Below the pieces are notes generated by a model. The model saw nothing but the letters and a program-made list of their open reading frames with translations, made no database searches and was not told where the DNA came from. Shown piece by piece: positions 12,530-46,276 of a stretch of DNA of 64,000 nt. The stretch covers positions 30,365-94,364 of the IMG/VR virus record IMGVR_UViG_3300037961_003440. The stretch is one strand, 5' to 3'. Source of the stretch: a virus. Every line of letters starts with the position of its first letter. The stretch's first letter is position 1. A program made the translations under genes and the position numbers.

Positions 12530-13885
12530 ATGACAGTTAGTGCTTATGTTGATGAAGGAAAATGTTTAGTTTTTCCTACAATGTGCGATGCATATATTCA
12601 CTTAGAATATGCTAAACATAATATGAATACAAATAATGGATTGTGGAATATTAATGGTTCTTTTACAGGTCAATTTATTATTAAGCCTTATGATGTAAAT
12701 GGTTATGGTGATAATACAGGCCAAACAAATAAAGATTTAGTAGCAAATGGTGGGGCAGGAAATATTACAAATAAAAAAACAATGCCAGCAATTGCTGATG
12801 GTGCAAAAGATAGTTTTGCTGCTCATGTTTTTAGAAATAATCAAGCCGAAAAATATTTACCAAATAGAGAAAGATATTTGGCTAAAGATATGACTGGTCA
12901 AATAATAAATAATAATCCGCATGAAATGTGTTTGTTTCATAATAACAATATAACTGTCAATTTAGTTAATACTACTGACCATAATCAAAATAATCCTGCT
13001 GAATATAAAGTACAATTTAAATTAACCATAGATGGAACAGAAACAATATTGGAATCAACTAATGTATTTACAAGTAGAAAATATCATTATTCTGATGTTT
13101 CTAAAGTTAGAAATCAAGTTATATCTGATGGTTCTACTGTAACTGTATTTGATGATTATCATTTGCAATTTGTTTATGACAAATATAAAATTATAGGAAA
13201 AGAGGCAGGACAACCACCTCATTCATTAATAGGTAATGAATACAAAGAAGGATATACAATAAAATTTACACCGGGAAATACACCAACTTCTGAATTTAAT
13301 ACAAATTTAAATCAAGCAGGAATTGTAATAAATGACCCTACGGGTAATCAACCAACTCCTTTTGAATCTATACCTATTGGAACAGAAATGTTCACCGAAG
13401 ATGGAATATCATTAGGTAAAGTAATGATGGTTATTCCTAAAGCACCTCCTATTTTCCCAAATCATGCTATTGCATTTCACCCCCTTCCGGCAGGTTCTAC
13501 AATACCAATTTTAAGAGATGGTGCTAAAATTTATACTGCTATTCACCGTGAGCCAATGTATATTCATACCACTACGCATATTTCTGTTGCTTATGAACAA
13601 ACTACAAGAAGAATGAGTATATTCGCAAATGGTATAGAAGTGGCTACTACAACACACGATTCTACAACAGGTAGTTTTTCTTTAGATGCAAGTGATGTAT
13701 ATATTGGTCAAAATGCTACTTTAGCATATCCTAACGATAGAAAAACACAATTTATGGGTGAGTTAGACAGTATATTATTTACTGATACATATATGACTAA
13801 TTATACGCATTTATTTAATCCTGTTGCGCCATACCAAAATATAATGCTTTATTACGATTTTAGTGAGGGGAGAGATAATGGTTAA
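12530..13885 (+). CDS. LamG/concanavalin-like tail protein
   Basis: HISVAYEQ..RMSIFANGIEV...VYIGQN...FMGELDSI LamG signature, interrupted by an insertion. Confidence 0.7.
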   Translation: MTVSAYVDEGKCLVFPTMCDAYIHLEYAKHNMNTNNGLWNINGSFTGQFIIKPYDVNGYGDNTGQTNKDLVANGGAGNITNKKTMPAIADGAKDSFAAHVFRNNQAEKYLPNRERYLAKDMTGQIINNNPHEMCLFHNNNITVNLVNTTDHNQNNPAEYKVQFKLTIDGTETILESTNVFTSRKYHYSDVSKVRNQVISDGSTVTVFDDYHLQFVYDKYKIIGKEAGQPPHSLIGNEYKEGYTIKFTPGNTPTSEFNTNLNQAGIVINDPTGNQPTPFESIPIGTEMFTEDGISLGKVMMVIPKAPPIFPNHAIAFHPLPAGSTIPILRDGAKIYTAIHREPMYIHTTTHISVAYEQTTRRMSIFANGIEVATTTHDSTTGSFSLDASDVYIGQNATLAYPNDRKTQFMGELDSILFTDTYMTNYTHLFNPVAPYQNIMLYYDFSEGRDNG

Positions 13886-16800
13886 TGTAGAATATAATTC
13901 AACCATAATACCATTAAATGTTGGTGTTCCGCTTCTTAGTCCTGTTTCAACATGGCCTCATACTTCAGGTACTTATAGCGATACGGGTTCTACAATTAAA
14001 AGTGCTTTTTATAATGTAAGTCAAAATCCAAGAATAATTATTAAAAATACATATGTTGGAAAAAGTATTAATTGTTATGAAATACACAATTCTCCAGATA
14101 CACCTTTATCGAGTGTTGCTTCAAATGTTTTTGAAGTTAAAAATATACAACGCTCAGGTGGTTTTAGTACTTCGGTATTAAATAGAGTCTATCCTTTTAA
14201 TTTAAATCTTGAAAGTTATTTAGAAGTAAGTGCCGCTACAAAGGGAAATAGAATTTGTTTAGAAGGACAAGGTGCATTAACAACATTAATTAGTGGTTCT
14301 ACTTTAGATACAGCAAGTGATTATTTTGTTGTAATAAATGCAGATGACCCTTTAAATCATCATATTGCTAAAATTACAGAATTACATACTTATGAAGTAT
14401 TTGGAGATGGTTTTGATTTTGAACCTGCTTATCATAAAGAAGTTCCAAAAGGTACTAAAATTAGTATATATAAAGGCCCAGATTCAACTGATACACATAT
14501 AGTAGCAGTAGGTTATGGATTATTAGGAGATTCTACAACAAGTGATGAAAGACACGATAGTTATGTAGAAGTTAGTAGACCAACATTTTATTTTTACGAA
14601 GATAGATGCGATGTAAATAAATTACTCGGAGATACAAAATATAAAGTTACTAAAACTTCAGCACACGGTTCAGGTGACCCATTTACCGGAGGTAGTTTAA
14701 CTTTTGATTTTGGTAAAAAACAATCAACAGCACATAGTTTATTTCATTTAACAACACCAGATTTACATAAGTTTGGTTCTTCTATATGTTTTAAAACCAC
14801 ATCTTCACACGGTAATTTTATTCAAGATAAATCAAGATATAGTCAATTTGGTTTATTAAAAGATAATTTAAAAATAAACGATGAAACTATAACACAAGCA
14901 TCTGGAGTAATGAAACAAAGAATAGTATCTAATGGTGCAGTAGAAGTTTATAATAACCCTAATATAGATTATATATGGAATACACAACCACATTCAGAAA
15001 CATATGATACAAGTTTAGGTGAATGGGATAAATGTTTTAAAAATATAAATAGAGATGGACATCATTTAACAACAGGTTTAAGTAAAGAATCTTATGATTC
15101 TAATATTAAAAGATATGTTGAATATGAAAATTCTGATACAAAAAATAACGCAATACCTCAAGTATCTAATATAGATATATATGAATCAATAGTTAGTGTT
15201 GGTAATTTTATTGAGGTAAATATACCTGACCCTAATAGAATAGTAGATTTAAAAATAAAACCATATGATAAAGTATCTTTAAGAGAACAATTAGATGATA
15301 TTGATTATGAAGGAAGAATGAGCATACCTTTAATTGGTAATGCTAACTCAAGTACAACAGGTTGGAGTTTAACAATAAAAGGGTTAAGTCCAAATCAAGA
15401 CTTAAGAACAATATGGGGAAGTTCAGATGTTGCCGCTTTAAATCCAGATGGAGTAGCGCATAGTGATAATTTAAATAAATTAAGAATAAAAAATATTATT
15501 TTTATGGGAGATTTTAATTCTGCACCGGTTCAGGGTGATGATGGTTATGAACAAGTATTTACTATTACACATAGAAGAAATGTAAATACAGATGCTACTT
15601 GGGTAGTTTGTACAGGTAATTGGTCTTTAGAAGATTTTGTAAATGAAACTGCCTTTGTTTATACTTACAATGGTAGAACTAAATTATTTAATACTAATGT
15701 ACAGATAGATACAGAATGGGATGGTACTAATTTAAAAAGAGATGGTAATATAGTCGGAATTAATGATTCTTATTTATCTAATACAGAATTTTTTGTTAGA
15801 GATAGAGATTTAACGGGTTTTAGAATACCAATAAAATATGGTGACAAAAATTTAAATTATCTTAAACCTTTATATGATGATTATGATTGTTATCAAATTA
15901 AAACTACCGTAAGAGGGAATAATAGCATTGTTAATGTACCTAATTTATATGAATATATTAATGGTAATATTATATATGATAATAAACTATTTGAAGGAAA
16001 TGTAGAATATCTGGAAGATGAAATACAACCAAGCGGTATATTACAATATAAATTTAAAGGAAGAGATAGAGTTTCTGATGTATTAGATATTGTAGTTAAT
16101 CATAATTTTACTCATACTTCAGATTATATTTACACAACTAATAATCCTACTAATGATTTAACTACTGTAATATTTAATTCAAATGCAAATACAGTAAATA
16201 TAAAAGATTTTGATTATGGAGATACCGTAATTAGTTTATTTAGTTTTGATTCTATTATTAGCACTCAAACCAATATAGAAGTAGGAGATACATTATTTTG
16301 TAATATTAATGGAAAGTGTAGATTAATAGGTATAATACAAAGTATTTCAGGAGAAACAGCAGTATCAGGTACTTATTGGAATGGTTCAACAAGAACGGCT
16401 ATTCCTCAACCTAATAATGGGTATAATATTACTTTAACAGAAGCAACAAATTACTCTTCTAAAAATAAAACCTACGGTGCAGATAATTTAAGAGTTAGTA
16501 AAAAGACTACTTCTTTAGGAAAGGCTTTATCTTCTAATTTATCTAATAATATAAGACCTACTTCATTAGAAGGTTGTTCAAACAAAGGACTATTATTTGT
16601 TGACGGTAATAGTATAAATTTAACAAGTGGAGAAAAAATAGAAAAATTAAGCAATTTATCTGCTATTGATTCAGAATTTTCTCAAGGTTTTCCTATTTCA
16701 AATATAAAAGGTAATGAAATAAGTGCAAATTTACCAGATTATAAATTTAACATAACCACAGATATTAATGAAAATATTATTAAAAAGTATGATACTATAA

Positions 16801-19800
16801 GTAGTCCGACAGAAATGGGAGTATTAAAAATAGAAGCATTAGAAAATAAACTATCGCTTATTACTTTAGCACCAATTTTTCCTGTTGTATTAGCAAAGAC
16901 AGCCGAAAATACATTAGACACTACTTTAACAAATTCACAAGGATTATATTTTGTAAATACACAGGGGTTATCTAATGGAGGATTTTTACATTATCTTAGT
17001 AGTGAAACTAATAATAACGGGGCATCTAAAACCTTTACAAATCCCGGATATATTGATGACCCAACAGATGTAGATGGTATAGATTATAGACTTGAAGATA
17101 ATTATGGTACATTTATATGGAGATATATTGGTCTACAAGAATCAGATAGCACATTGGTTTGGAATAATGCTATGATAGATAGAGTTTGGAATGTTAAATA
17201 TAGCCAAACAAATAGAGAATTAAATCATATGTATGGAAATAAATCTCCTATTAATGGTTATGCTTCTGCTGTTAGAATAGAATATGATGGAGTAGTTAGA
17301 AATTGGGATTATCAATCAGTAATAACACAAGCATGGTTAAAGCAAAATTCACCTGAAGGTAGAGAAGGATTTTATAATATTGAAGGTTCAAGATTTTGGG
17401 ATATTCTTAAAATGCCTAATGAAATTAGAAATCAAATTGCAGGTTTTGGTTTAGTGCTTAACCCAACATATGCGTTTAGAGAATCAAGTCTTAGAAGTTA
17501 TTATCCTAAACTTTCTACAAGAATAGGTTTTCCCGGAGATTTAATTAACAATTTAACAGGTACATATTATCAGTATAGAGAAAATTATGAAGCATTTGAT
17601 AAAGGTATAGAAAACTTTTATTTATTTTCAACAGGAGATATATATCCTGATAGTTATAAAAGAACAAATAGTATAGGTTTTACAAATAGAAATTTGTCAG
17701 ATTATGGTATTATTTTTAAATCAAAGGGTGTTAAAGGCAATACTATAATAGAACATAGTAATTATAAAGGTACAATAGTAGATACATTAGAAAGTGACAC
17801 AAGTTATGAAATAATGCCTATAAATAATTCTAATAAAAATACTTCTGAATTAAAAAGAATGGGTTTAATGAGATTAATAGAGGTAACCTATGATTGGCAT
17901 TTTAATGAAGTAGATTATGAAAATTTAGATGATATAGTAAAATCAAGAAAATCAAGATTTACAACTGAAATAAAACCATTAGGTGATTATGTAGAGTTTT
18001 TTCCGGGCGAAATAGATATGTTAAAAACATCTTTTGGTAATCCAAAAGTAATAGGTTTTAGTATAGATGGTTCTACACAAGCAAATGGAGAATATACTGA
18101 ATCAGGGTCACTTAACGGTAGTGCTTTACCATATTATATTATAGAAGAAGGTTCAACAACAATTCCAAACACAGTATCAGGGGTAATGGACTTTTTTAAA
18201 ATATATACAGATTATGATAATTTTGATACAGGTTCAACTAATTTACTTGGTACTTATCAAGCCCAAATTTTAGGATTAACAAATATTGAAGGTGGTTATA
18301 GAACAGTCAATACAGGGCCTAATCAATTAAGATTACAAGGTTCTTGGCATACAGAAACAGGTATATTAGCAGGTAATTTAGCATCAAGTGTTACACAACA
18401 ACCTATTGGTGGTACTGTTGGTACTTATACTGCTGTTGTTACTACAACAAATAATACCAATAGAGCAAGAGGATTTATTTGTGATATTACATTAGATTCA
18501 CCAACTAATGTATCATCTATAGTATTTCATGAAGAATCAAGTAGCGTATTTATTGGTAAGAATATACATTATAAAGGTGCTCATTATCAAGCAGGAGATA
18601 CTGTTACAATTGCTGGTTCTGCTGTGGGTTCTTCGCAAGACATTATTATTACCCTACAAAATTCCGATTTAACTACCGAACATAGAATATATTTATTTCA
18701 AACCGGTCAAGCATCTGGGCAAAATAATAATGCACTAAATTATGAAGATGTAATTACAGGTACTAATATTAAAAGATGTGATTATACCGGTTTATTAAAA
18801 ATGACAGCAGATGGACAAGATGAGCCTCAAGATATACATTCTTATGAAGTAAGAACAAATGAAGGTGATTTTATTGCTAATAGTATTGCATATACAGGAT
18901 TAAGAGCAGAAAACTATTTCTTTAACTATACTACAATTTTAGGTGCATTAGATAATGATGATGGATTTTATAAAGGAGTATATGAAGATACAGCAATAAC
19001 TACTCAGACTGATGCAGAAAAACAAAAGGGGTATCATATATTTATTCCTTATCATGTAACAGGGGGAAGCAGAAATAATTTACATGAATCTGTTGGTGCA
19101 TTACCATTAAAAAGAGGTACGCCTATAAGATTTGGTAGTCTATTACCTTTTTCACAAGGCGTAGATGTAGATTTAAGAAGTACACAAGGTAACACAACAA
19201 AATCTTTATCAAGAGTTATAGATGCATTTTCTGAATGGGATGATGGAACACAAACTGCAAATACAAGACCTGTTGGTTATGCACCAAGTCATTTATATAC
19301 AGATACTATGTTAGTTATTAAAAGATTAAAAGCACATAATCATTCAATGCTTGGACAATCAAAAGGTTTTCCTATGCAAAATGCTCATATTTATGGCGAT
19401 ACAACTTCTATTAACACTAAGATAAATACAGAAGAAATTTATAATGGTTCTACAATACCAAACTTACATTTATCTTTTTGTTTTACAGATTCACAATCTT
19501 CATTCCCTTCAATTTTATACGCTTATAATTTTACAGATGTATCACAATACCCTAATAGAACAACTTATGGTTTTGAATCTACGGGTACTCAGGCATATGG
19601 TTCTGTATCAACAAATAACCATAGATTTTTATCTTCAACAGGAGGTAGAAATGTAGTAGATGATAGAGGAAATGATTTATTGGATAAATCAGACCAAATA
19701 TACGGGGCAGAAATTTTATTTAAATTAAATTTATCTTTACTTGCCAGCAATGTATCAGTTATAGAATTAGATAATTTATCTCAAACAAGTGGAAGTTTAA

Positions 19801-21644
19801 CACTTAATGCTAATGGCTCTACTACAAATGGTAGAGCAGTAATTAAAATTGAACAAGTAGATATTGCATCTGAGGATGGTTTTTCTACAAATAATGCAGG
19901 TACATTAGTTAATGTAGATGTGTCCTCATCTTTTAATAAGATTAATCAATGGGTTAATTTTGTTAATGATTTAACAGGTCATTATTTAGTTTCCGAACAA
20001 GATTTATCTAATAATGATATTCCTTTGTATATACACTCAAGAAGAAATGATGTACAAGAATCTACGGCAAATCTTATACATCAAGTTATTAGCCATAATA
20101 TTAATCATAACGGTACTACAATAACACATTATATAGAAATAGATAATGTTCCTTATTCAAATGGTTCTCATCAATTATATAATATGTATAGAGTTATGAG
20201 AATAGCAAAGGACTGTACTTTTGATTTTACCCCTAATGATGTAGAAATGTATAAATTATCAAATAGATTTACTCGTATGCCAGCAGAAAATAAATGTTAT
20301 ACATTAGTAGGAAATTCAAATATTTTTCCTCATCGTGGTGCAGCAAGTACAAATTTAACAGCGTGTAATGAAGCAGTATTATCTATGTATGTAGGTTTAG
20401 ATGTAGATGGAAAACCTAATTCAGATTATATTGTTAAAAGAGTTAATAATAGTTTTGCTACTGTTGATGGTAATAATAATACATTTATTAAAAATAAATC
20501 TTATAATTGTTTAGTTACAGATGGGATAACAGATTTAAATAAAGATTTATTATTTACAGGTGACGGTAGCCTTTCAAACCCCGATAGAATTGTATTTTCA
20601 GGTCAAATGAAAAATTTAAAAGGTATAGTTTCAATAGGTGAAGCATTTTCAGTAACTACTCAAAGAAATCCAATAAACAATACTGTTAAAAGATGTAATA
20701 TAGCAAGCACAGTAGATATAGTAGAAGAAGTAGATGAGATAACAAATACTATATTAGAAACTAATAATATACAATTTAATCCAGAATATAATGTTACAAA
20801 TGATTTATATTACATAGGTAACAATTACATAGGTAATAATGCCTTTTCAGTTATTAATAGATTATTAAATTATAAAAATAAAAGATTATATATTGATGGA
20901 AGAAATATAAAAGGGTTAGATAATATTCCTGACGAATGGAAAACTAATATAGTTTTATCAGAAAATGATGTTGATTCTCAAGTTAGCAATATTAAAAGAA
21001 TACAATCTACATTTGATTTCTTTAATCATGTAGTAGTTTATGGTGATGGAGTAAAAGGTACTGGTAGAAATAGACAATCAATAAAAGAAACTGATAGAAC
21101 AATAACTAAGGAAATAACAGACTTAACAATAAAAACACAAAAGGCCGCAGATGATTTAGCAATATCAACAGTAGAAACTCTTGATTCATTAAATAGTCAA
21201 GTAGAATTTCAAATACCCAGATTTAAAATACCATATCTAAAGGCCGGTCATATTATTACATTAGATTATCCTACTCAAAAAATACCAACAAATTTTTATC
21301 AAGTCTTAGAAATACAAACTATATTTGGACAATTGCCTAAAGTTATATTAGGTAAGTATAGTCAATCTTTAGCAGGAGTATATACAGATATTATAATTAA
21401 AAATCAAGAAACAGATGGTCAATTGAGGGGAGATAATTTTACTGATGAAACAGCAAATGTTTCCGAAGATGATGATTCCTTTATTCAACCAATGAAACTA
21501 AAAATAACTAAAACAACAACGGCATCAAGTTCTAATAGTACAATAGGGTTTAATAACCTAATAGGGTTTAACAGTAGTGTAGGGTTTGTTTCTACATCAT
21601 CAAGTAGCCAAGAAGTAATATTAGATGAGGACTTAACGGGGTGA
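13863..21644 (+). CDS. Giant baseplate hub/central tail adhesin
   Basis: 2593 aa. Hub-like segments FEGNVEY..YKFKGRD and FNHVVVYG...LKAGHIITLDY..YQVLEI flank a very large N/T/S-rich insertion. Confidence 0.6.
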   Translation: MRGEIMVNVEYNSTIIPLNVGVPLLSPVSTWPHTSGTYSDTGSTIKSAFYNVSQNPRIIIKNTYVGKSINCYEIHNSPDTPLSSVASNVFEVKNIQRSGGFSTSVLNRVYPFNLNLESYLEVSAATKGNRICLEGQGALTTLISGSTLDTASDYFVVINADDPLNHHIAKITELHTYEVFGDGFDFEPAYHKEVPKGTKISIYKGPDSTDTHIVAVGYGLLGDSTTSDERHDSYVEVSRPTFYFYEDRCDVNKLLGDTKYKVTKTSAHGSGDPFTGGSLTFDFGKKQSTAHSLFHLTTPDLHKFGSSICFKTTSSHGNFIQDKSRYSQFGLLKDNLKINDETITQASGVMKQRIVSNGAVEVYNNPNIDYIWNTQPHSETYDTSLGEWDKCFKNINRDGHHLTTGLSKESYDSNIKRYVEYENSDTKNNAIPQVSNIDIYESIVSVGNFIEVNIPDPNRIVDLKIKPYDKVSLREQLDDIDYEGRMSIPLIGNANSSTTGWSLTIKGLSPNQDLRTIWGSSDVAALNPDGVAHSDNLNKLRIKNIIFMGDFNSAPVQGDDGYEQVFTITHRRNVNTDATWVVCTGNWSLEDFVNETAFVYTYNGRTKLFNTNVQIDTEWDGTNLKRDGNIVGINDSYLSNTEFFVRDRDLTGFRIPIKYGDKNLNYLKPLYDDYDCYQIKTTVRGNNSIVNVPNLYEYINGNIIYDNKLFEGNVEYLEDEIQPSGILQYKFKGRDRVSDVLDIVVNHNFTHTSDYIYTTNNPTNDLTTVIFNSNANTVNIKDFDYGDTVISLFSFDSIISTQTNIEVGDTLFCNINGKCRLIGIIQSISGETAVSGTYWNGSTRTAIPQPNNGYNITLTEATNYSSKNKTYGADNLRVSKKTTSLGKALSSNLSNNIRPTSLEGCSNKGLLFVDGNSINLTSGEKIEKLSNLSAIDSEFSQGFPISNIKGNEISANLPDYKFNITTDINENIIKKYDTISSPTEMGVLKIEALENKLSLITLAPIFPVVLAKTAENTLDTTLTNSQGLYFVNTQGLSNGGFLHYLSSETNNNGASKTFTNPGYIDDPTDVDGIDYRLEDNYGTFIWRYIGLQESDSTLVWNNAMIDRVWNVKYSQTNRELNHMYGNKSPINGYASAVRIEYDGVVRNWDYQSVITQAWLKQNSPEGREGFYNIEGSRFWDILKMPNEIRNQIAGFGLVLNPTYAFRESSLRSYYPKLSTRIGFPGDLINNLTGTYYQYRENYEAFDKGIENFYLFSTGDIYPDSYKRTNSIGFTNRNLSDYGIIFKSKGVKGNTIIEHSNYKGTIVDTLESDTSYEIMPINNSNKNTSELKRMGLMRLIEVTYDWHFNEVDYENLDDIVKSRKSRFTTEIKPLGDYVEFFPGEIDMLKTSFGNPKVIGFSIDGSTQANGEYTESGSLNGSALPYYIIEEGSTTIPNTVSGVMDFFKIYTDYDNFDTGSTNLLGTYQAQILGLTNIEGGYRTVNTGPNQLRLQGSWHTETGILAGNLASSVTQQPIGGTVGTYTAVVTTTNNTNRARGFICDITLDSPTNVSSIVFHEESSSVFIGKNIHYKGAHYQAGDTVTIAGSAVGSSQDIIITLQNSDLTTEHRIYLFQTGQASGQNNNALNYEDVITGTNIKRCDYTGLLKMTADGQDEPQDIHSYEVRTNEGDFIANSIAYTGLRAENYFFNYTTILGALDNDDGFYKGVYEDTAITTQTDAEKQKGYHIFIPYHVTGGSRNNLHESVGALPLKRGTPIRFGSLLPFSQGVDVDLRSTQGNTTKSLSRVIDAFSEWDDGTQTANTRPVGYAPSHLYTDTMLVIKRLKAHNHSMLGQSKGFPMQNAHIYGDTTSINTKINTEEIYNGSTIPNLHLSFCFTDSQSSFPSILYAYNFTDVSQYPNRTTYGFESTGTQAYGSVSTNNHRFLSSTGGRNVVDDRGNDLLDKSDQIYGAEILFKLNLSLLASNVSVIELDNLSQTSGSLTLNANGSTTNGRAVIKIEQVDIASEDGFSTNNAGTLVNVDVSSSFNKINQWVNFVNDLTGHYLVSEQDLSNNDIPLYIHSRRNDVQESTANLIHQVISHNINHNGTTITHYIEIDNVPYSNGSHQLYNMYRVMRIAKDCTFDFTPNDVEMYKLSNRFTRMPAENKCYTLVGNSNIFPHRGAASTNLTACNEAVLSMYVGLDVDGKPNSDYIVKRVNNSFATVDGNNNTFIKNKSYNCLVTDGITDLNKDLLFTGDGSLSNPDRIVFSGQMKNLKGIVSIGEAFSVTTQRNPINNTVKRCNIASTVDIVEEVDEITNTILETNNIQFNPEYNVTNDLYYIGNNYIGNNAFSVINRLLNYKNKRLYIDGRNIKGLDNIPDEWKTNIVLSENDVDSQVSNIKRIQSTFDFFNHVVVYGDGVKGTGRNRQSIKETDRTITKEITDLTIKTQKAADDLAISTVETLDSLNSQVEFQIPRFKIPYLKAGHIITLDYPTQKIPTNFYQVLEIQTIFGQLPKVILGKYSQSLAGVYTDIIIKNQETDGQLRGDNFTDETANVSEDDDSFIQPMKLKITKTTTASSSNSTIGFNNLIGFNSSVGFVSTSSSSQEVILDEDLTG

Positions 21645-33524: not shown

Positions 33525-34577
33525 TTAATATAATCCATGAGGTTTTGCTTCTAATTGTCCTGCTTGTGTAACTCTACAAAATGTTGCTTTAGTTTGAAAA
33601 TCAGTAATAGTATGTGCGCCTACATAACTCATAGAGGATTTAATTCCATCAGATATATCATTAACTATTCTTCTTACCTTTCCTTTATATGGTGTAATTT
33701 TAGAATTACCTTCTACATTTTTAGTTTCTTCCCCTCGTGCTGTTTTAGAATCAATAGAAGCAGAACCTTGATACTTTTTGTATAATTGTTCATTAGGCCA
33801 TTGACCCATTTTAGATATAATTCCCGGAGTTTCTTTTGTTCCTGCAAATAAAGAACCTACCATAACTGCATCAGCACCAAGAGCAATTGCTTTAGGAATA
33901 TCTCCTACTGTTTTACAACCGCCATCAGCAACAATATATGGTATTTCATCTAAGTCTAAAACTTCGTTTATATGATATGCAATATCTAATAATGCTGTTG
34001 CTTGAGGAACACCAACACCTGCTCTAATTCTTGTTTCACACATAGAACCATTACCAATTCCTACTCTTAAAGAATCAGCACCTGCTTCAATTAATCTTTC
34101 AGCCGCACCTTTAGTTACAATATTTCCAGCCATTACATGAATGTCCTCAAATTCTTCTTTAATATAAGCAATCATTTCACCGACTAATTCATGGTCGCCA
34201 TGTGCAACATCAATACAAACACCTTGAATATTAGTATAACCTACTAATGAATCAAATCTATCTTTACCTTTTTGACCTACACCAACTGCCGCAATATATT
34301 GTCCTCTTACTTCTGATTCAATATCATAACATAATGCTACTTGTTCTTTAATAGATTGAAATCTATGTAATACACCAATACCACCAAGTTTTGCTAATTC
34401 AATACACATTTCTGTACCGCATACCGTGTCCATTGGTGAAGCAATTAATGGTACATTTAAATTAAAATTACCAAATTCTACCGATGTATCACAATGACTT
34501 CTTGATTTTATATCCGACATATATGGTATAATACTAATATCATCATAAGTTAAACTATCTCTTTCTTCTATTTTCAA
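33525..34577 (-). CDS. IMP dehydrogenase/GMP reductase family (no CBS domain)
   Basis: [42 protein letters not shown]. Confidence 0.92.
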
Positions 34578-40017: not shown

Positions 40018-40368
40018 TCATTCTTCTTCACTCTCACTATTACAATCTTTGCAGTTTTTATGACTAATAAATCCTGAGCCATCACAGGAATTACATAAAT
40101 CCAATTTAACATATGTGTTTGCTTTTCTATTTACAACCTTTCTGTATCTTTTAGCATCATTAACATAATGTATTATTTTCCCCTTTGGCGGTACATAACT
40201 AAATGTTAATCCATTTGCTTCAATATAAGTTAGAATTGCATCTACAATTTGATTAGGGCTTCTTTCTTCGCCATCATTCATGGCTCTATCAATAAACCTT
40301 TCAGCATATGTTTTATTTCTTTTTCTTCTTTTTCCGTTAATCCAATTTCTTTTTACCACTATAAACAC
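40018..40368 (-). CDS. Putative wHTH protein with C-terminal DnaJ-like Zn finger
   Basis: RSPNQIVDAI helix; CNSCDGSG..CKDC. Confidence 0.45.
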   Translation of the reverse strand: MFIVVKRNWINGKRRKRNKTYAERFIDRAMNDGEERSPNQIVDAILTYIEANGLTFSYVPPKGKIIHYVNDAKRYRKVVNRKANTYVKLDLCNSCDGSGFISHKNCKDCNSESEEE

Positions 40369-41749: not shown

Positions 41750-42016
41750 TTATTCTTCCTCTCGGAAATCATCAAGTGTAGTCTGTCCTGTTTCTTCAAA
41801 TGGTAGGGGTTTATTTAGTTCATCTACTACTGCTGTAAATAAATGTTTAGGTAATACACCCTCAATTCTATAAACCATTAATTTACCAACACATCTTAAA
41901 TGATAATATGATTCTTCACCATTTGGTAGTAATTGTATTAAACCTTCTTCTACACCATTAAATTCTTCTCTACAATAATGACACTTTTTTCCTTGTTCTA
42001 TTTTTCTTATTTTCAT
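41750..42016 (-). CDS. Zn-finger protein with PIP box
   Basis: CHYC...YHLRC; GQTTLDDF. Confidence 0.6.
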   Translation of the reverse strand: MKIRKIEQGKKCHYCREEFNGVEEGLIQLLPNGEESYYHLRCVGKLMVYRIEGVLPKHLFTAVVDELNKPLPFEETGQTTLDDFREEE

Positions 42017-43515
42017 AGTTTCACCTCTAATTCTTTTATTTGAGTTGGTTCAGATTTATCATCTCGGTGCTTAACATATCTTGGGAATCTTAAACCATAT
42101 TCACCAGATTCGTTTTTAGTAATCATATCACCCTTTACCTCAATAATAATATCTTCCCTATCTTGTTGGTTATACAGTCGGGTTAAAAATATTATGTCCT
42201 CTTCTGTAAAACCACTACCTACTCTACCAAAAGAAACTAATTCATCTTCATCTTTAATAGCAATATCAAATGAAGAATAATATCCTGTTAATCTTCCTGA
42301 ACCTGCATGGGCATCAGTAATTATAACATCAATATCAACCATAGGAGGTTTATATTTTAACCAACCTTTACTTCTTGCACCAAAATCATAAGACATAGAT
42401 GGGTCTTTTACAATAACACCTTCAAATCCTGCTTCAATTGCTTCATTATAAACTTCTATAAATTCTTCTTGAGTATTGACCTCTACCATATTAGCAATTA
42501 ATTCATTACCAAAGTGCATTTTTAGTGTTTCCCAACGGGTATCTAAATCATCTTCAAATACAGGTTGTCCACCATACATTAAACAATCAAACAATTTAAT
42601 AGTTACAGGATTACGATAAATTACTTCTTCGGTCTTACCGTGAATGCGACTCATAATATTCTTAAATTCAGCAGGATTACCTTCTGTATCAACAGGATAA
42701 ATTTCACCATCAACAATCCAATCCACAGGGTCTGAGTTTTTACCAATTAAAGGTATCAAATCATTTTCAAACTTAGATGTAATATCATCACCTTTACGAT
42801 TAAATATTTTAATACCATCTGCATTTTGATGAACCTGCGCTCTAATTCCGTCATATTTATAATCACAAAATCTACGATTTCTTACTGTAAAGTTTCCACC
42901 TTTTGCTAACATTGGTTTCATATAATTACCTGCCTCCGGTACATATACCAAAGCGTTATTATTAACACATTGAGATATAACATCCTCAATAGGCAAAAAA
43001 CTTACAGCCTTTTTAATATCACTTGCAGGTATTCCATATGTCTTTTGTAGTATTTTCTTAACGACATTTGTGCCGCATTTGTTTCTTGTTTGGTTTAACA
43101 AAAATGCTGCTAACCATTTTTTACCTAAAGCATCTACATTATCAAAGCAATACATAATTTGATTAAATACAGAATCCATATTTTCACCATGTAAAGCAGT
43201 ATAAACTTCTGCTACTGTAATATCATTATTTCCATCAGCCTCATCAAATAATGTTTCAATTGCTTCTCCTAATCCGCCATGTATTTCTACTAAGGTTTCT
43301 ATTGTTTCACTATCTACATTATATTTATCAGCGACTCTTTTAATAAGACCCGTTTCACCTGCACCATTATTAGGATAATTTCTTGCCCATAGGTTTAACA
43401 TTTCTTCAACATTATCCATTGGATTATCATCAAAATACTTTACCATTTGTGTAGGTGTCATATCTATAAATTCTTCATTAATTCTTGCAAAATCGTTCCA
43501 CATCATTTTTTTCAC
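42013..43515 (-). CDS. lig: ATP-dependent DNA ligase
   Basis: KYDGIR, VDGEI, EGVIVK, WLKYK, RVGSGFT, LRFPRY. Confidence 0.97.
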   Translation of the reverse strand: MKKMMWNDFARINEEFIDMTPTQMVKYFDDNPMDNVEEMLNLWARNYPNNGAGETGLIKRVADKYNVDSETIETLVEIHGGLGEAIETLFDEADGNNDITVAEVYTALHGENMDSVFNQIMYCFDNVDALGKKWLAAFLLNQTRNKCGTNVVKKILQKTYGIPASDIKKAVSFLPIEDVISQCVNNNALVYVPEAGNYMKPMLAKGGNFTVRNRRFCDYKYDGIRAQVHQNADGIKIFNRKGDDITSKFENDLIPLIGKNSDPVDWIVDGEIYPVDTEGNPAEFKNIMSRIHGKTEEVIYRNPVTIKLFDCLMYGGQPVFEDDLDTRWETLKMHFGNELIANMVEVNTQEEFIEVYNEAIEAGFEGVIVKDPSMSYDFGARSKGWLKYKPPMVDIDVIITDAHAGSGRLTGYYSSFDIAIKDEDELVSFGRVGSGFTEEDIIFLTRLYNQQDREDIIIEVKGDMITKNESGEYGLRFPRYVKHRDDKSEPTQIKELEVKL

Positions 43516-43591: not shown

Positions 43592-43810
43592 TCATTCTTC
43601 ACTCTCCCTGAGTTCTAACATTTCTTTATATTCATTTTCATACTTGTATGGTTTCTCTAACGCATAAAGTAAATCATCTACACTTACACCTTTTACATCA
43701 TGTAAAAATCTACATAGTGCTACGATATTATTATGGTCTGCATACCATTCCCAATATTTTTTATTTTCCATTTTATTCATCTTCATCATCTCCTGTATTC
43801 CATTCTCCAA
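43592..43810 (-). CDS. Hypothetical protein
   Basis: Operon ORF. Confidence 0.55.
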   Translation of the reverse strand: MENGIQEMMKMNKMENKKYWEWYADHNNIVALCRFLHDVKGVSVDDLLYALEKPYKYENEYKEMLELRESEE

Positions 43811-44054
43811 ATTCTAAATCATCTTCTTTCTTTTCTATAACCCTATCATTAAAATTAACTGATGCTATCTTAACATGATTAACAGTTAATCTTGTTTTTG
43901 TTTTATCTCCACCTGCTTCTTCATTACAAAATTCAGCAAACTGTTCCAAAATTCTTTCGGCTCTTGTTTGAAATTCTGTAATTGCTACCAAAGGCAATTG
44001 TCTATCGGGTGCTATCTTCTCAAATATTCTTTTTATTTCTCTTACGCTAACCAT
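43773..44054 (-). CDS. Histone-fold protein with acidic tail
   Basis: REIKRIFEKIAPDRQLPLVAITEFQTRAERILEQFAEFCNEEA..KTKTRLTVNHVKIA matches alpha1-L1-alpha2-L2-alpha3 spacing. Confidence 0.7.
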   Translation of the reverse strand: MVSVREIKRIFEKIAPDRQLPLVAITEFQTRAERILEQFAEFCNEEAGGDKTKTRLTVNHVKIASVNFNDRVIEKKEDDLEFGEWNTGDDEDE

Positions 44055-44464
44055 TTATTTACACTCTCCTTGTTGTAAAAATATTTTGGATTTTCAACTT
44101 CTTTAAGGTTCAAGGCAATCCAAACCGAACCACTTAGAGAATCAACTCTAATTACTTCATAGTTTTCTGTAACAATATATGTTTCTACATTTGGCGTTTT
44201 ACCATACAATCTTTGTATTTCTTGTGATACCGATTGAATATTATCAACAATATATTTTATTATTAACGGCATTTGTATTTCCACATATGGTTCAGAATCT
44301 AATTCATATATCCCTGTTTGATTACAAACATTACAATTTTGTCCATTACATATAGGGCATTTAATTTCTAAATTAGATAATACAGGAAACCTTACTCTTC
44401 GGACTCGTCTAATTCCATTAGATTCGTCTTGCTTAGAAATTGCTTTTCTTTGCTTTTCCACCAT
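44042..44464 (-). CDS. Zn-finger protein (CxxCxG..CxxC)
   Basis: CPICNGQNCNVCNQTG. Confidence 0.55.
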   Translation of the reverse strand: MVEKQRKAISKQDESNGIRRVRRVRFPVLSNLEIKCPICNGQNCNVCNQTGIYELDSEPYVEIQMPLIIKYIVDNIQSVSQEIQRLYGKTPNVETYIVTENYEVIRVDSLSGSVWIALNLKEVENPKYFYNKESVNKWLA

Positions 44465-44817
44465 TTCATTCTCTCCTTATCACCAATTACAATTGCTGAA
44501 TTAAGAATAGGTAATTGAGTATTAATAGTATTCCAATCTGTATCACTAAAATAAGCCGCCCCAAATGGGTGAGTATGAATCCAGCATTTAAGCGGTATTC
44601 TCATACCAACAACTGATTCATCTTCGTAATCAACAAAACTTCTTGTACCTTTACTAATAAACAAATTATCATTACTGTCTACTATAACTGATACTTCTTT
44701 TTCATTTAGTATTTCTGTTGATAATTCCCATATAGCATTTAAGAAAACCTCACTTTCATAATTACTTTCTTCTTCATCAAACATTTCTTTTAATTTATCT
44801 TTTGCTTCTGTCCACAT
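44392..44817 (-). CDS. JAB/MPN+ metalloprotease (deubiquitinase-like)
   Basis: E(KEV)...WIHTHP...FSDTD = E-HxH-x7-S-x2-D JAMM motif. Confidence 0.88.
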   Translation of the reverse strand: MWTEAKDKLKEMFDEEESNYESEVFLNAIWELSTEILNEKEVSVIVDSNDNLFISKGTRSFVDYEDESVVGMRIPLKCWIHTHPFGAAYFSDTDWNTINTQLPILNSAIVIGDKERMKWWKSKEKQFLSKTNLMELDESEE

Positions 44818-45023
44818 TATTCATCACCTTCATATTCAAATCCTAATTGTTCTTGTCTTTCTTTTCCACAATCAAAAGGGTTAGAGTGGATTTGACCACT
44901 AATCCTTGAATTGATTATTTTTATATTTGGTTCACCTTCTTTAATTAGTTTCCCACATAATCTACATTTTGCATTTCCTGTTCCTACACTTAATATCCAT
45001 TCTGTCATTATACACACATCCAT
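44817..45023 (-). CDS. Zn-finger microprotein
   Basis: AKCRLCGKLIKEGE...H....C. Confidence 0.5.
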   Translation of the reverse strand: MDVCIMTEWILSVGTGNAKCRLCGKLIKEGEPNIKIINSRISGQIHSNPFDCGKERQEQLGFEYEGDE

Positions 45024-45718: not shown

Positions 45719-46276
45719 TCACCCATTTATCCTAAAATGCTTTTCAACATAATCTCCATTAAACCATCTTTGAATCCATTGAGCACCATAACCTGCAATT
45801 ACAACTTGCATAAAATTAACTCCTTCAGGTTCTCCTTCCCAAGAATCACCTTGACAACTAAAACTACCATCTGGGCCACTTGTAAATACATTATATAATT
45901 CAGGTTTTTCTAAATGTGAAATCATAGCGGCATTTCTCGCTTGCGCTCTAAGGTCTAACCATTTAACTTTAGAATTATACATTGTTCTTCTAATATCTAA
46001 ATTGTCGGCACAACAAACAACTAAATCATATCCTTTTAATTGTCCTGCTGTTAATACAGGATAAGGTTGTGCATTAACATTATACCTTTTAGACATAGCA
46101 TTAACTTTCTTTTCATCTAAATCTTCTTTGGTAAAGTTTTGATATGTTAGATTCTTTTCCTCTACAATATCAGGGTCATAAACTGTTATATCATATATCC
46201 CTACTTTATCCAATAGTGGTATTAGAAAACTTCCAATTCCACCTGCGCCTATCAACATTACTTTTCTCTTACTCAT
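45719..46276 (-). CDS. E1-like ThiF/MoeB adenylating enzyme
   Basis: GAGGIGS, DPDIVEEKNLTYQ, KV, CADNLDIRR; C-terminal SCQ Cys. Confidence 0.9.
   Translation of the reverse strand: MSKRKVMLIGAGGIGSFLIPLLDKVGIYDITVYDPDIVEEKNLTYQNFTKEDLDEKKVNAMSKRYNVNAQPYPVLTAGQLKGYDLVVCCADNLDIRRTMYNSKVKWLDLRAQARNAAMISHLEKPELYNVFTSGPDGSFSCQGDSWEGEPEGVNFMQVVIAGYGAQWIQRWFNGDYVEKHFRING

Follow-up and report, generated by a model that had tools for sequence, protein, structure and literature searches.

Gene organization of the locus

The focus of this study was a small gene in a stretch of viral DNA of 64,000 nucleotides (nt), referred to as the window, which corresponds to bases 30365-94364 of the 94,364-base IMG/VR virus record IMGVR_UViG_3300037961_003440. 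The gene follows those of a JAB/JAMM protease and a 140-amino acid (aa) zinc-knuckle protein (referred to as Zn140), and its 93-aa product is very probably a histone-fold protein with an acidic C-terminal tail. The open reading frame (ORF), with an ATG start and 93 codons on the minus strand, occupied 43773-44054 exactly, as had been called from the letters of the window (referred to as the sequence-only reading). Its position two genes from the JAB protease, given by the same reading, was also right: the order JAB > Zn140 > histone-fold gene was the same in all loci reaching that far.

Homologs of the protein were found in 22 protein clusters with 59-100% identity, all from marine metagenomes and on contigs of up to 103 kb, and an exhaustive HMMER search of 1.8 billion representatives yielded a handful more family members with 34-51% identity. 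The ratio of nonsynonymous to synonymous substitution rates (dN/dS), estimated pairwise against six relatives, was 0.20-0.46, and this constraint extended to the tail; the gene is real and under purifying selection. The family is known solely from marine metagenomic virus contigs (all homologs being of Tara/marine origin): no member has a record in NCBI or UniRef, and the sole name in any source is "hypothetical protein". Neither a pattern scan covering the species genomes of 185,579 prokaryotes nor tblastn against 50,697 phage records found a relative, and a family-profile search for fused or longer forms found none, which is weak evidence. A pattern scan of IMG/VR for the family member P0024 did not find it, and relatives were recovered via Zn140 instead. 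A 411-aa repeat protein (P0030) was rejected as a spurious family member, only a short "C..EAAGD" stretch being matched.

Structure model and fold matches

The AlphaFold2 (AF2) model, built on a 21-sequence alignment, contained helices at residues 4-14, 22-46, and 58-85, with a predicted local distance difference test (pLDDT) value of 69, falling below 50 from residue 77. The α1-L1-α2-L2-α3 topology with a long central helix was present in this model, and the helix spacing, from which a histone fold had been read in the sequence, was confirmed. When the model was compared with the PDB using Foldseek, the high-probability matches were all histone-fold chains (probability ~1.0, template modelling (TM) score 0.55-0.64, E ~0.1), and the ten best matches in BFVD were histones, a TAF, and unnamed proteins (probability 0.87-0.99); E-values across the two databases were ~0.1-0.2.

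VIA-align, which does not depend on Foldseek, was used for an unbiased search of 48,161 chains; histone-fold proteins made up 48 of the 50 best matches, with Z up to 7.6 over 72-77 residues. The best matches were TAF11 (Z 7.6), a chain of the SAGA core module, an H2B variant, NC2-beta, TAF12, CENP-X, and TAF9, and the list further included H3/CENP-A, H2A, and the archaeal histone HPhA, with 65-78 residues aligned. Although Z below 8 is weak alone, weight comes from the uniformity of the match list. In the ESM Atlas, the nearest named clusters were all PF00808 or PF00125, comprising archaeal histones or viral TAF-like proteins.

Two unnamed viral proteins in BFVD, A0A516M0E3 (89 aa) and A0A516MG14 (79 aa), matched the model as well as named histones did (TM 0.64-0.76, ~20% identity). 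Because their accession series is shared with the "phage histone" A0A516LIY4 of Schwab et al., they may add to the known histone-fold proteins of viruses that infect marine prokaryotes.

Predicted homodimer

A homodimer structure prediction, which the sequence-only reading had suggested as a check, gave a handshake-type dimer. The two-copy prediction passed, with an interaction score from predicted aligned errors (ipSAE) of 0.63, the best of three controls giving 0.00. Of 30 proteins with structures solved as one-chain pairs, 20 attained the pass mark, as did 1 of 23 with single-chain structures. Agreement between runs was at least 74% of contacts, and the pLDDT of the partner was at least 69. 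Contacts with the lowest error linked residue 35 with 35/36, α1 (7, 10, 11) with 36-44 of the partner, and L1 (20, 24) with L2/α3 of the partner (56, 58, 61), predicting an antiparallel handshake dimer in which the α2 helices cross and L1 lies against the L2 of the partner. Since many histone dimers have already been solved, this pass may show likeness rather than binding.

Sequence relationship and conserved residues

At the level of sequence profiles, the only link of the family is PF00808 (CBFD_NFYB_HMF; gathering cut-off, 21.4 bits), of the archaeal/NF-Y type. A scan of IMG/VR with Zn140 gave 31 loci, each with a family gene in the same overlapping position, and the most divergent of these syntenic orthologs (81 aa, L117-L126) were found by the family hidden Markov model (HMM) at E 1e-13 to 1e-17. 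The ortholog in L117 scored 22.7 bits against PF00808, above the cut-off and over profile positions 7-64 of 65, while four further syntenic orthologs scored 15-20 bits and the family member P0029 19.5 bits. Sequence searches of the PDB with the window protein and the A1 family profile gave nothing meaningful, and P0029 retrieved only spurious armadillo and uL15 matches from the same database.

Column counts were made in 26 family sequences. Five residues, R5, R9, R18, R31, and R55, were Arg in 26/26, and these invariant arginines persisted in the 81-aa subfamily; C43 was found in 25/26 and H60 in 23/26. C43 (codon 43926-43928), near the end of α2, is replaced in the 81-aa subfamily. Together with H60, it may lie in the α2-end/α3 region that forms the dimer-dimer four-helix bundle in histones, and a redox or metal role is possible.

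The structure model with its fold matches, the dimer prediction, the sequence link through a syntenic ortholog, and the language-model neighbours agreed with each other, and we regard the assignment of a histone fold as very likely to be correct.

Acidic C-terminal tail

The acidic tail noticed in the sequence-only reading is present (net charge -8 in the window copy), and the tail is acidic in all family members, with net charges from -2 to -16. F82 and G83 were conserved in 24/26, W85 in 23/26, and N86 in 22/26 sequences, and F-G-[ED]-W-N occurred near the C-terminus in most members, distant ones included. In the 81-aa subfamily (L117-L126), the acidic end is kept and the F-G-E-W-N motif is absent. 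Relatives in L106 (3336-3716), L108 (3336-3719), L109, and L110 are 126-127 aa long and carry a charged insert of 35-40 residues between the fold and the F-G-E-W-N end; as far as sequence goes, this fits a flexible linker presenting a terminal peptide.

Relation to H2A

H2A or H2A-like chains headed the Foldseek lists in both the PDB and BFVD, at 19-22% identity and E ~0.1, and the Thr-Arg order and the His of the L2-α3 segment matched the H2A motif of about a dozen residues to which the sequence-only reading had likened this segment. The local register held (K53-T54-R55, and H60 opposite the Asp of α3; T-R-h-h-x-x-H-h-x-h-A), but the resemblance was not diagnostic at such E-values and identities. 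Eukaryotic H2A and the viral H2A-like proteins (iridovirus, Marseillevirus) also share with the window protein an acidic or regulatory C-terminal extension. In the VIA-align ranking, H2A stood below TAFs, H2B, and NC2. The window protein had no match to the core-histone profile PF00125, and two distant family members scored 13.8-16 bits against its cut-off of 26.4. The model begins at α1 (residue 4) and continues after α3 into the acidic, low-confidence tail, without αN and without an αC/docking domain. A PF00808 search of the 94-kb record of the virus gave no match, and no paralogue of the family was found there either, so that no H2B-like partner gene was found. With these domains and a second histone-fold gene missing, a homodimer predicted, and PF00808 as the sole profile link, "H2A-like" did not hold as a family identity; to judge from the model, the protein would work like a minimal singlet histone outside the H2A family.

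The two lysines after the fold, which had been taken as the region where H2A is ubiquitylated, are present in the window copy but not conserved: K75 was found in 3/26 and K76 in 6/26 sequences, and several homologs carry only Arg, Gln, or Glu, and no Lys, at these positions. No acceptor lysine after the fold is therefore conserved. Because of this, the sequence argument for a substrate of a ubiquitin-like protein (Ubl) fails, and the link to a Ubl system that remains is gene order, with JAB and E1.

Gene neighbourhood and virus

The features of the locus are listed in Table 1. In the synteny sample, consisting of 14 loci found through the histone-fold protein and 31 through Zn140 (many contigs being common to both), the gene order was g415 > TFB-like > E1-like > (g177, Zn68) > JAB > Zn140 > histone-fold gene > (72-aa gene) > ligase, and was unchanged wherever the contig reached, even where identity had dropped to 30-38% for the histone-fold gene and the ligase. 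The Zn140 stop overlapped the start of the histone-fold gene in 31/31 loci found through Zn140 and in all 13 loci of a further comparison, and the sequence of this junction, ...AAATGGTTAGYRTAAGA..., was found in nearly all loci compared. The 13-nt overlap and the upstream GGAG point to coupled translation of the two genes.

Table 1. Features of the histone-fold gene and its neighbours (positions in the window)
Feature	Position	Strand	Evidence or remark
Histone-fold protein gene	43773..44054	-	93 aa + stop; ORF call, homologs, AF2 model, fold matches, purifying selection
Histone-fold core, residues 1-70	43845..44054	-	α1 4-14, L1 15-21, α2 22-46, L2 47-57, α3 from 58
Acidic C-terminal tail, residues 71-93, + stop codon	43773..43844	-	Net charge -8; pLDDT <50 from residue 77; tail dN/dS 0.10-0.86
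F-G-E-W-N motif, residues 82-86 in tail	43797..43811	-	Column counts in 26 sequences
13-nt overlap, Zn140 stop / histone-fold gene start	44042..44054		Sequence; GGAG ~12 nt upstream of ATG
Zn140, 140 aa	44042..44464	-	Basic N-terminus, CxxCxG...CxxCxxxG zinc knuckle, α/β C-domain; family alignment
JAB/JAMM protease gene	44392..44817	-	Directly upstream of Zn140, overlapping; PF14464 Prok-JAB, E 1.9e-4; synteny
ThiF/E1-like gene	45719..46276	-	Start of conserved block; PF00899, E 5e-16
ATP-dependent DNA ligase	42013..43515	-	Conserved downstream neighbour; PF01068, E 1.1e-38; synteny
72-aa small gene between histone-fold gene and ligase	43592..43810	-	Position not fixed in relatives

Zn140, which belongs to a virus-only family, has four invariant cysteines in a DnaJ-like knuckle (alignment A4). 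No Pfam or PHROG family was found for it, the ESM Atlas gave unnamed viral clusters only, and its AF2 model (pLDDT 55) was too poor for a fold search. Because of the tight gene pairing, Zn140 would be the prime candidate partner of the histone-fold protein. In most relatives, the JAB and Zn140 ORFs (44392-44464 in the window) share 25-73 nt that are read in different frames; L117 is without overlap at the alignment level. Both frames are conserved at the protein level (tblastn alignments; L001-L011, L093-L126). The explanation could be a plain overlap with coupled translation, a true Zn140 start located further into the ORF, or a fusion of both proteins by programmed frameshifting.

The 185-aa ThiF/E1-like protein was the best conserved of the block (L096-L126), with 71-90% identity versus 38-89% for the ligase and 30-86% for the histone-fold gene, which suggests a minimal E1 under unusually strong constraint. 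In L001-L003, the 72-aa gene is located between Zn68 and JAB, and L007-L010 lack it; being moved within the module or absent in relatives, it has no fixed association with the histone-fold gene. The start annotated for it overlaps the histone-fold tail by 38 nt, and a later ATG is likely. Four small cysteine-rich zinc-ribbon/zinc-knuckle proteins are encoded within 5 kb (40018-40368, 41750-42016, 44817-45023, and Zn140 at 44042-44464); one of them gave a weak match to the DnaJ CxxCxGxG repeat (PF00684, E 8e-4), and none of the four is in a known family.

The surrounding 30 kb encodes, on the same strand, PolB, an RFC-like AAA+ ATPase, a RadA-like ATPase, ERCC4 and PD-(D/E)XK nucleases, ribonucleotide reductase, and the ligase, and the family-B DNA polymerase is nearest to those of haloarchaeal tailed viruses. 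A full-length gene of the IMPDH/GMP-reductase family (PF00478, E 2.7e-91) lies at 33525-34577, directly downstream of the PolB gene, and the structural half of the window contains a single plus-strand ORF of 2,593 aa (13863-21644). Magroviruses, which infect marine group II archaea, have been described with such a replication block (PMC5434244). Gene content and the Tara/marine origin of the homologs suggest a magrovirus-like, archaeal tailed virus, which probably infects marine archaea; from gene content and sampling, the presumed host is Poseidoniales.

Discussion

The protein shares with the archaeal histones HMfA/HMfB and HPhA (PF00808) a single histone fold of ~65 residues without an N-terminal tail, a predicted handshake homodimer, and Arg at the α1 and L1 positions equivalent to R10 and R19; the model superimposed on HPhA with Z 6.4 and a root-mean-square deviation of 2.1 over 65 residues, and the L117 ortholog exceeded the PF00808 cut-off. 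The most likely, although tentative, function is that of a histone-like protein of the replication/early block that binds DNA as a homodimer, is produced along with Zn140, and uses its tail for docking or gating. The protein would pair with itself as a classic handshake dimer and bind double-stranded DNA via the L1-L2 and α1-α1 surfaces, namely, R5 and R9 (α1), R18 (L1), and R55 (L2). Made together with Zn140 through the stop/start overlap, it may act in the replication/early-gene block as an architectural protein or by coating viral (or host) DNA. The F-G-E-W-N tail would be a short linear peptide through which the dimer docks to Zn140 or a replisome protein as its partner; alternatively, the acidic tail may fold back on the basic DNA-binding ridge and gate DNA binding. 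We infer all three elements, i.e., DNA binding, the partnership with Zn140, and the role of the tail.

Several findings weigh against such a DNA binder. The window protein had no match in Pfam (E up to 10), NCBIfam, or PHROG, and is without significant direct sequence similarity to archaeal histones. When 62 real archaeal histones, fetched from databases using HMfB as a probe, were compared with the 26-sequence family by hhalign, the result was null (probability 0.2%), and the 41-sequence family with the divergent syntenic orthologs gave a weak alignment (columns 5-65 on 6-64, E 0.0023, probability 12.5%). An RxTxxxD-type motif (R-x-T in L2 and Asp in α3) marks nucleosomal archaeal histones (PMC11390915). 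In the family, this R-x-T...D signature is altered to K-T-R...H, with Thr and Arg swapped and R55 invariant, so that L2 has K-T-R, not R-K-T, and the Asp of α3 is replaced by His. In comparison with HMf-type histones, α2 is approximately one turn shorter and L2 approximately 4 residues longer, and the viral protein carries a 23-residue acidic tail with F-G-E-W-N. Its isoelectric point (pI) is ~4.7, those of family members being mostly 4.3-4.8 and up to 5.9 in short-tailed ones, and the net charge of the core ranges from +3 to -4, mostly 0 to -4. Furthermore, protein-binding histone folds (TAFs, CENP-S/X, NC2) scored as well as true histones in VIA-align, and many histone-fold proteins of this kind bind proteins rather than wrap DNA. 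The family also differs from archaeal histones in being virus-only, the pattern scan of species genomes having given 0/185,579.

Acidity is no bar to DNA binding because acidic archaeal histones, which make up a quarter of all, are reported to keep the basic DNA-binding ridge (PMC13260811). In the weak hhalign alignment, R9 fell on archaeal R10, R18 on R19, and K53-T54-R55 on R52-K53-T54. We take these archaeal positions to be the DNA-binding residues identified by HMfB mutagenesis; in this register, three of the five invariant arginines would occupy archaeal DNA-contact positions. The proposal of the sequence-only reading that the gene encodes a viral chromatin protein is thus plausible on the strength of the histone fold, the predicted handshake homodimer, and the invariant arginines in α1, L1, and L2. 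As to its alternative of a host-histone poison, Poseidoniales are reported to be unique in possessing acidic, four-fold fused histones (~262 aa, cluster 5; PMC13260811); if these archaea are the host, poisoning through heterodimers is unlikely, since each histone chain of the host already contains its folds in pairs. Capping of host histones or binding mediated by the tail could still take place.

The same fold might instead serve as a protein-binding module, the dimer or tail of which binds a host or viral protein, candidates being host histones or chromatin proteins (as a decoy or cap) and, in the manner of NC2/TAFs, TBP/TFB, and thereby redirects host chromatin or transcription. We consider this rather unlikely, but of appreciable weight, since the protein is strongly acidic overall, its best VIA-align matches were TAF11, the SAGA chain, the H2B variant, NC2-beta, TAF12, CENP-X, and TAF9 rather than archaeal histones, every locus has a TFB-like gene at a distance of four genes upstream, and the conserved acidic tail with F and W resembles a short linear docking motif. 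On the other hand, the five invariant residues are all Arg, three of them at canonical DNA-contact positions, the 81-aa subfamily keeps these arginines but is without F-G-E-W-N, and a heterodimer with host histones is unlikely if the latter are fused quadruplets. A role as a replisome accessory subunit, by analogy with Dpb3-Dpb4 of DNA polymerase epsilon or with CHRAC, would place the protein on double-stranded DNA behind the polymerase or ligase, with the tail docked on the clamp, polymerase, or SSB. The histone-fold gene adjoins the ligase gene inside the replication block, Dpb4-Dpb3 and CHRAC dimers were among the VIA-align matches (Z 5.7-6.0), and C-terminal acidic-aromatic peptides are typical of replisome docking, as in bacterial SSB and T7 gp2.5; however, the absence of sequence similarity to Dpb3/4, a tail motif unlike the canonical PIP box, and the prediction of a homodimer rather than a heterodimer make this role improbable. 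That the protein is no histone fold, but a generic three-helix protein with a chance resemblance, is highly improbable: Foldseek E-values of only ~0.1-0.2, VIA-align Z below 8 (which may reflect a common helical arrangement), a pLDDT of only 69, and the lack of a direct HMM match for the window protein speak for this, but 48/50 VIA-align matches shared one fold over the full domain, a syntenic ortholog exceeded the PF00808 cut-off, the predicted dimer had handshake contacts, the alignment with archaeal histones was in register, and the language-model neighbours were histones.

Involvement in a Ubl-E1-JAB system, in which the histone-fold protein (perhaps with Zn140) is modified by Ubl, or its tail trimmed by JAB, as an activity switch, has a low probability in our estimation. 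The order E1 > ... > JAB > Zn140 > histone-fold gene is invariant in loci reaching that far, the JAB, Zn140, and histone-fold genes overlap one another, and K62 is Lys in 22/26 sequences, with Lys or Arg at position 8 in all. Nevertheless, the proposed KK acceptor is not conserved (K75 3/26, K76 6/26), no lysine is invariant across the family, the tail has no Gly-Gly site, and a simple operon of co-expressed early/replication genes would explain the gene order equally well, the ligase being as fixed a neighbour. The fuller version, in which JAB, Zn140, the histone-fold protein, the E1-like enzyme, and the Ubl gene proposed in the sequence-only reading form one unit, with the histone switched by Ubl attachment and removal or by JAB trimming of the tail, is very unlikely.

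Among known systems, "phage histones" were described by Schwab et al. in 2024 (PMC11390915), and the Caudoviricetes histone-fold clusters VTTHFP, VHHHFP, and others in the hLife survey of 2025 (PMC13681535). The window protein resembles these in being small and encoded by a tailed virus of marine metagenomic origin, in having conserved basic residues near positions 5, 9, ~30, and ~50, and in carrying a C-terminal extension. However, phage histones/VTTHFP are described with an α3 of 3-4 residues, an α2 shorter by 4-5, K10-G17-R30-K49, and a tetramerizing C-terminal helix (PMC11390915, PMC13681535), and the window protein would differ from these descriptions in the full-length α3 of its model (from residue 58), a residue 17 other than Gly, the spacing R9-R31-R55, and an acidic, low-confidence tail. 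Because no member has an NCBI or UniRef record, the family probably lies outside the set of the InterPro-based hLife survey. With the quadruplet histones of Poseidoniales, the presumed host, the viral protein shares an acidic histone fold and the same ecological/host setting, but it is a singlet with a tail, whereas those of the host have four fused folds in ~262 aa. TAF11/13, TAF4/12, NC2, and CENP-S/X were the best or near-best structural matches (Z 7.1-7.6; Dpb3/4, ~6.0), and are likewise small histone folds that assemble proteins or bend DNA as parts of larger machines; unlike these obligate eukaryotic heterodimers, the viral protein has no second fold gene, shows no sequence similarity to them, and is predicted to form a homodimer.

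Giant viruses are known to encode histones, and magroviruses are among the most abundant archaeal viruses of the surface ocean. To our knowledge, no magrovirus has been cultivated, histone-fold proteins of tailed viruses went unrecognized until 2024-2025, and no role in infection is known for any of them. In the magrovirus literature searched, histones, ubiquitin, ubiquitin-like systems, JAB proteases, and ThiF were all unmentioned. The family is a divergent variant of the recently described virus-encoded histones, which differ from it in tail motif and neighbours: a zinc-finger protein, JAB, E1-like and TFB-like proteins, and ligase adjoin a core, position-fixed gene of one magrovirus lineage that is unannotated in all sources. 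Since the protein is small and easily expressed, the ideas on DNA binding and on Ubl/JAB are directly testable. If DNA binding is true, archaeal tailed viruses would supply a chromatin protein of their own to a host in which unusual histones, fused and acidic, package the DNA. If the protein is tied to the Ubl/JAB genes, it would represent a new kind of regulated viral chromatin, and switching by Ubl/JAB, if true, would be an archaeal-virus counterpart of histone ubiquitylation that evolved outside eukaryotes.

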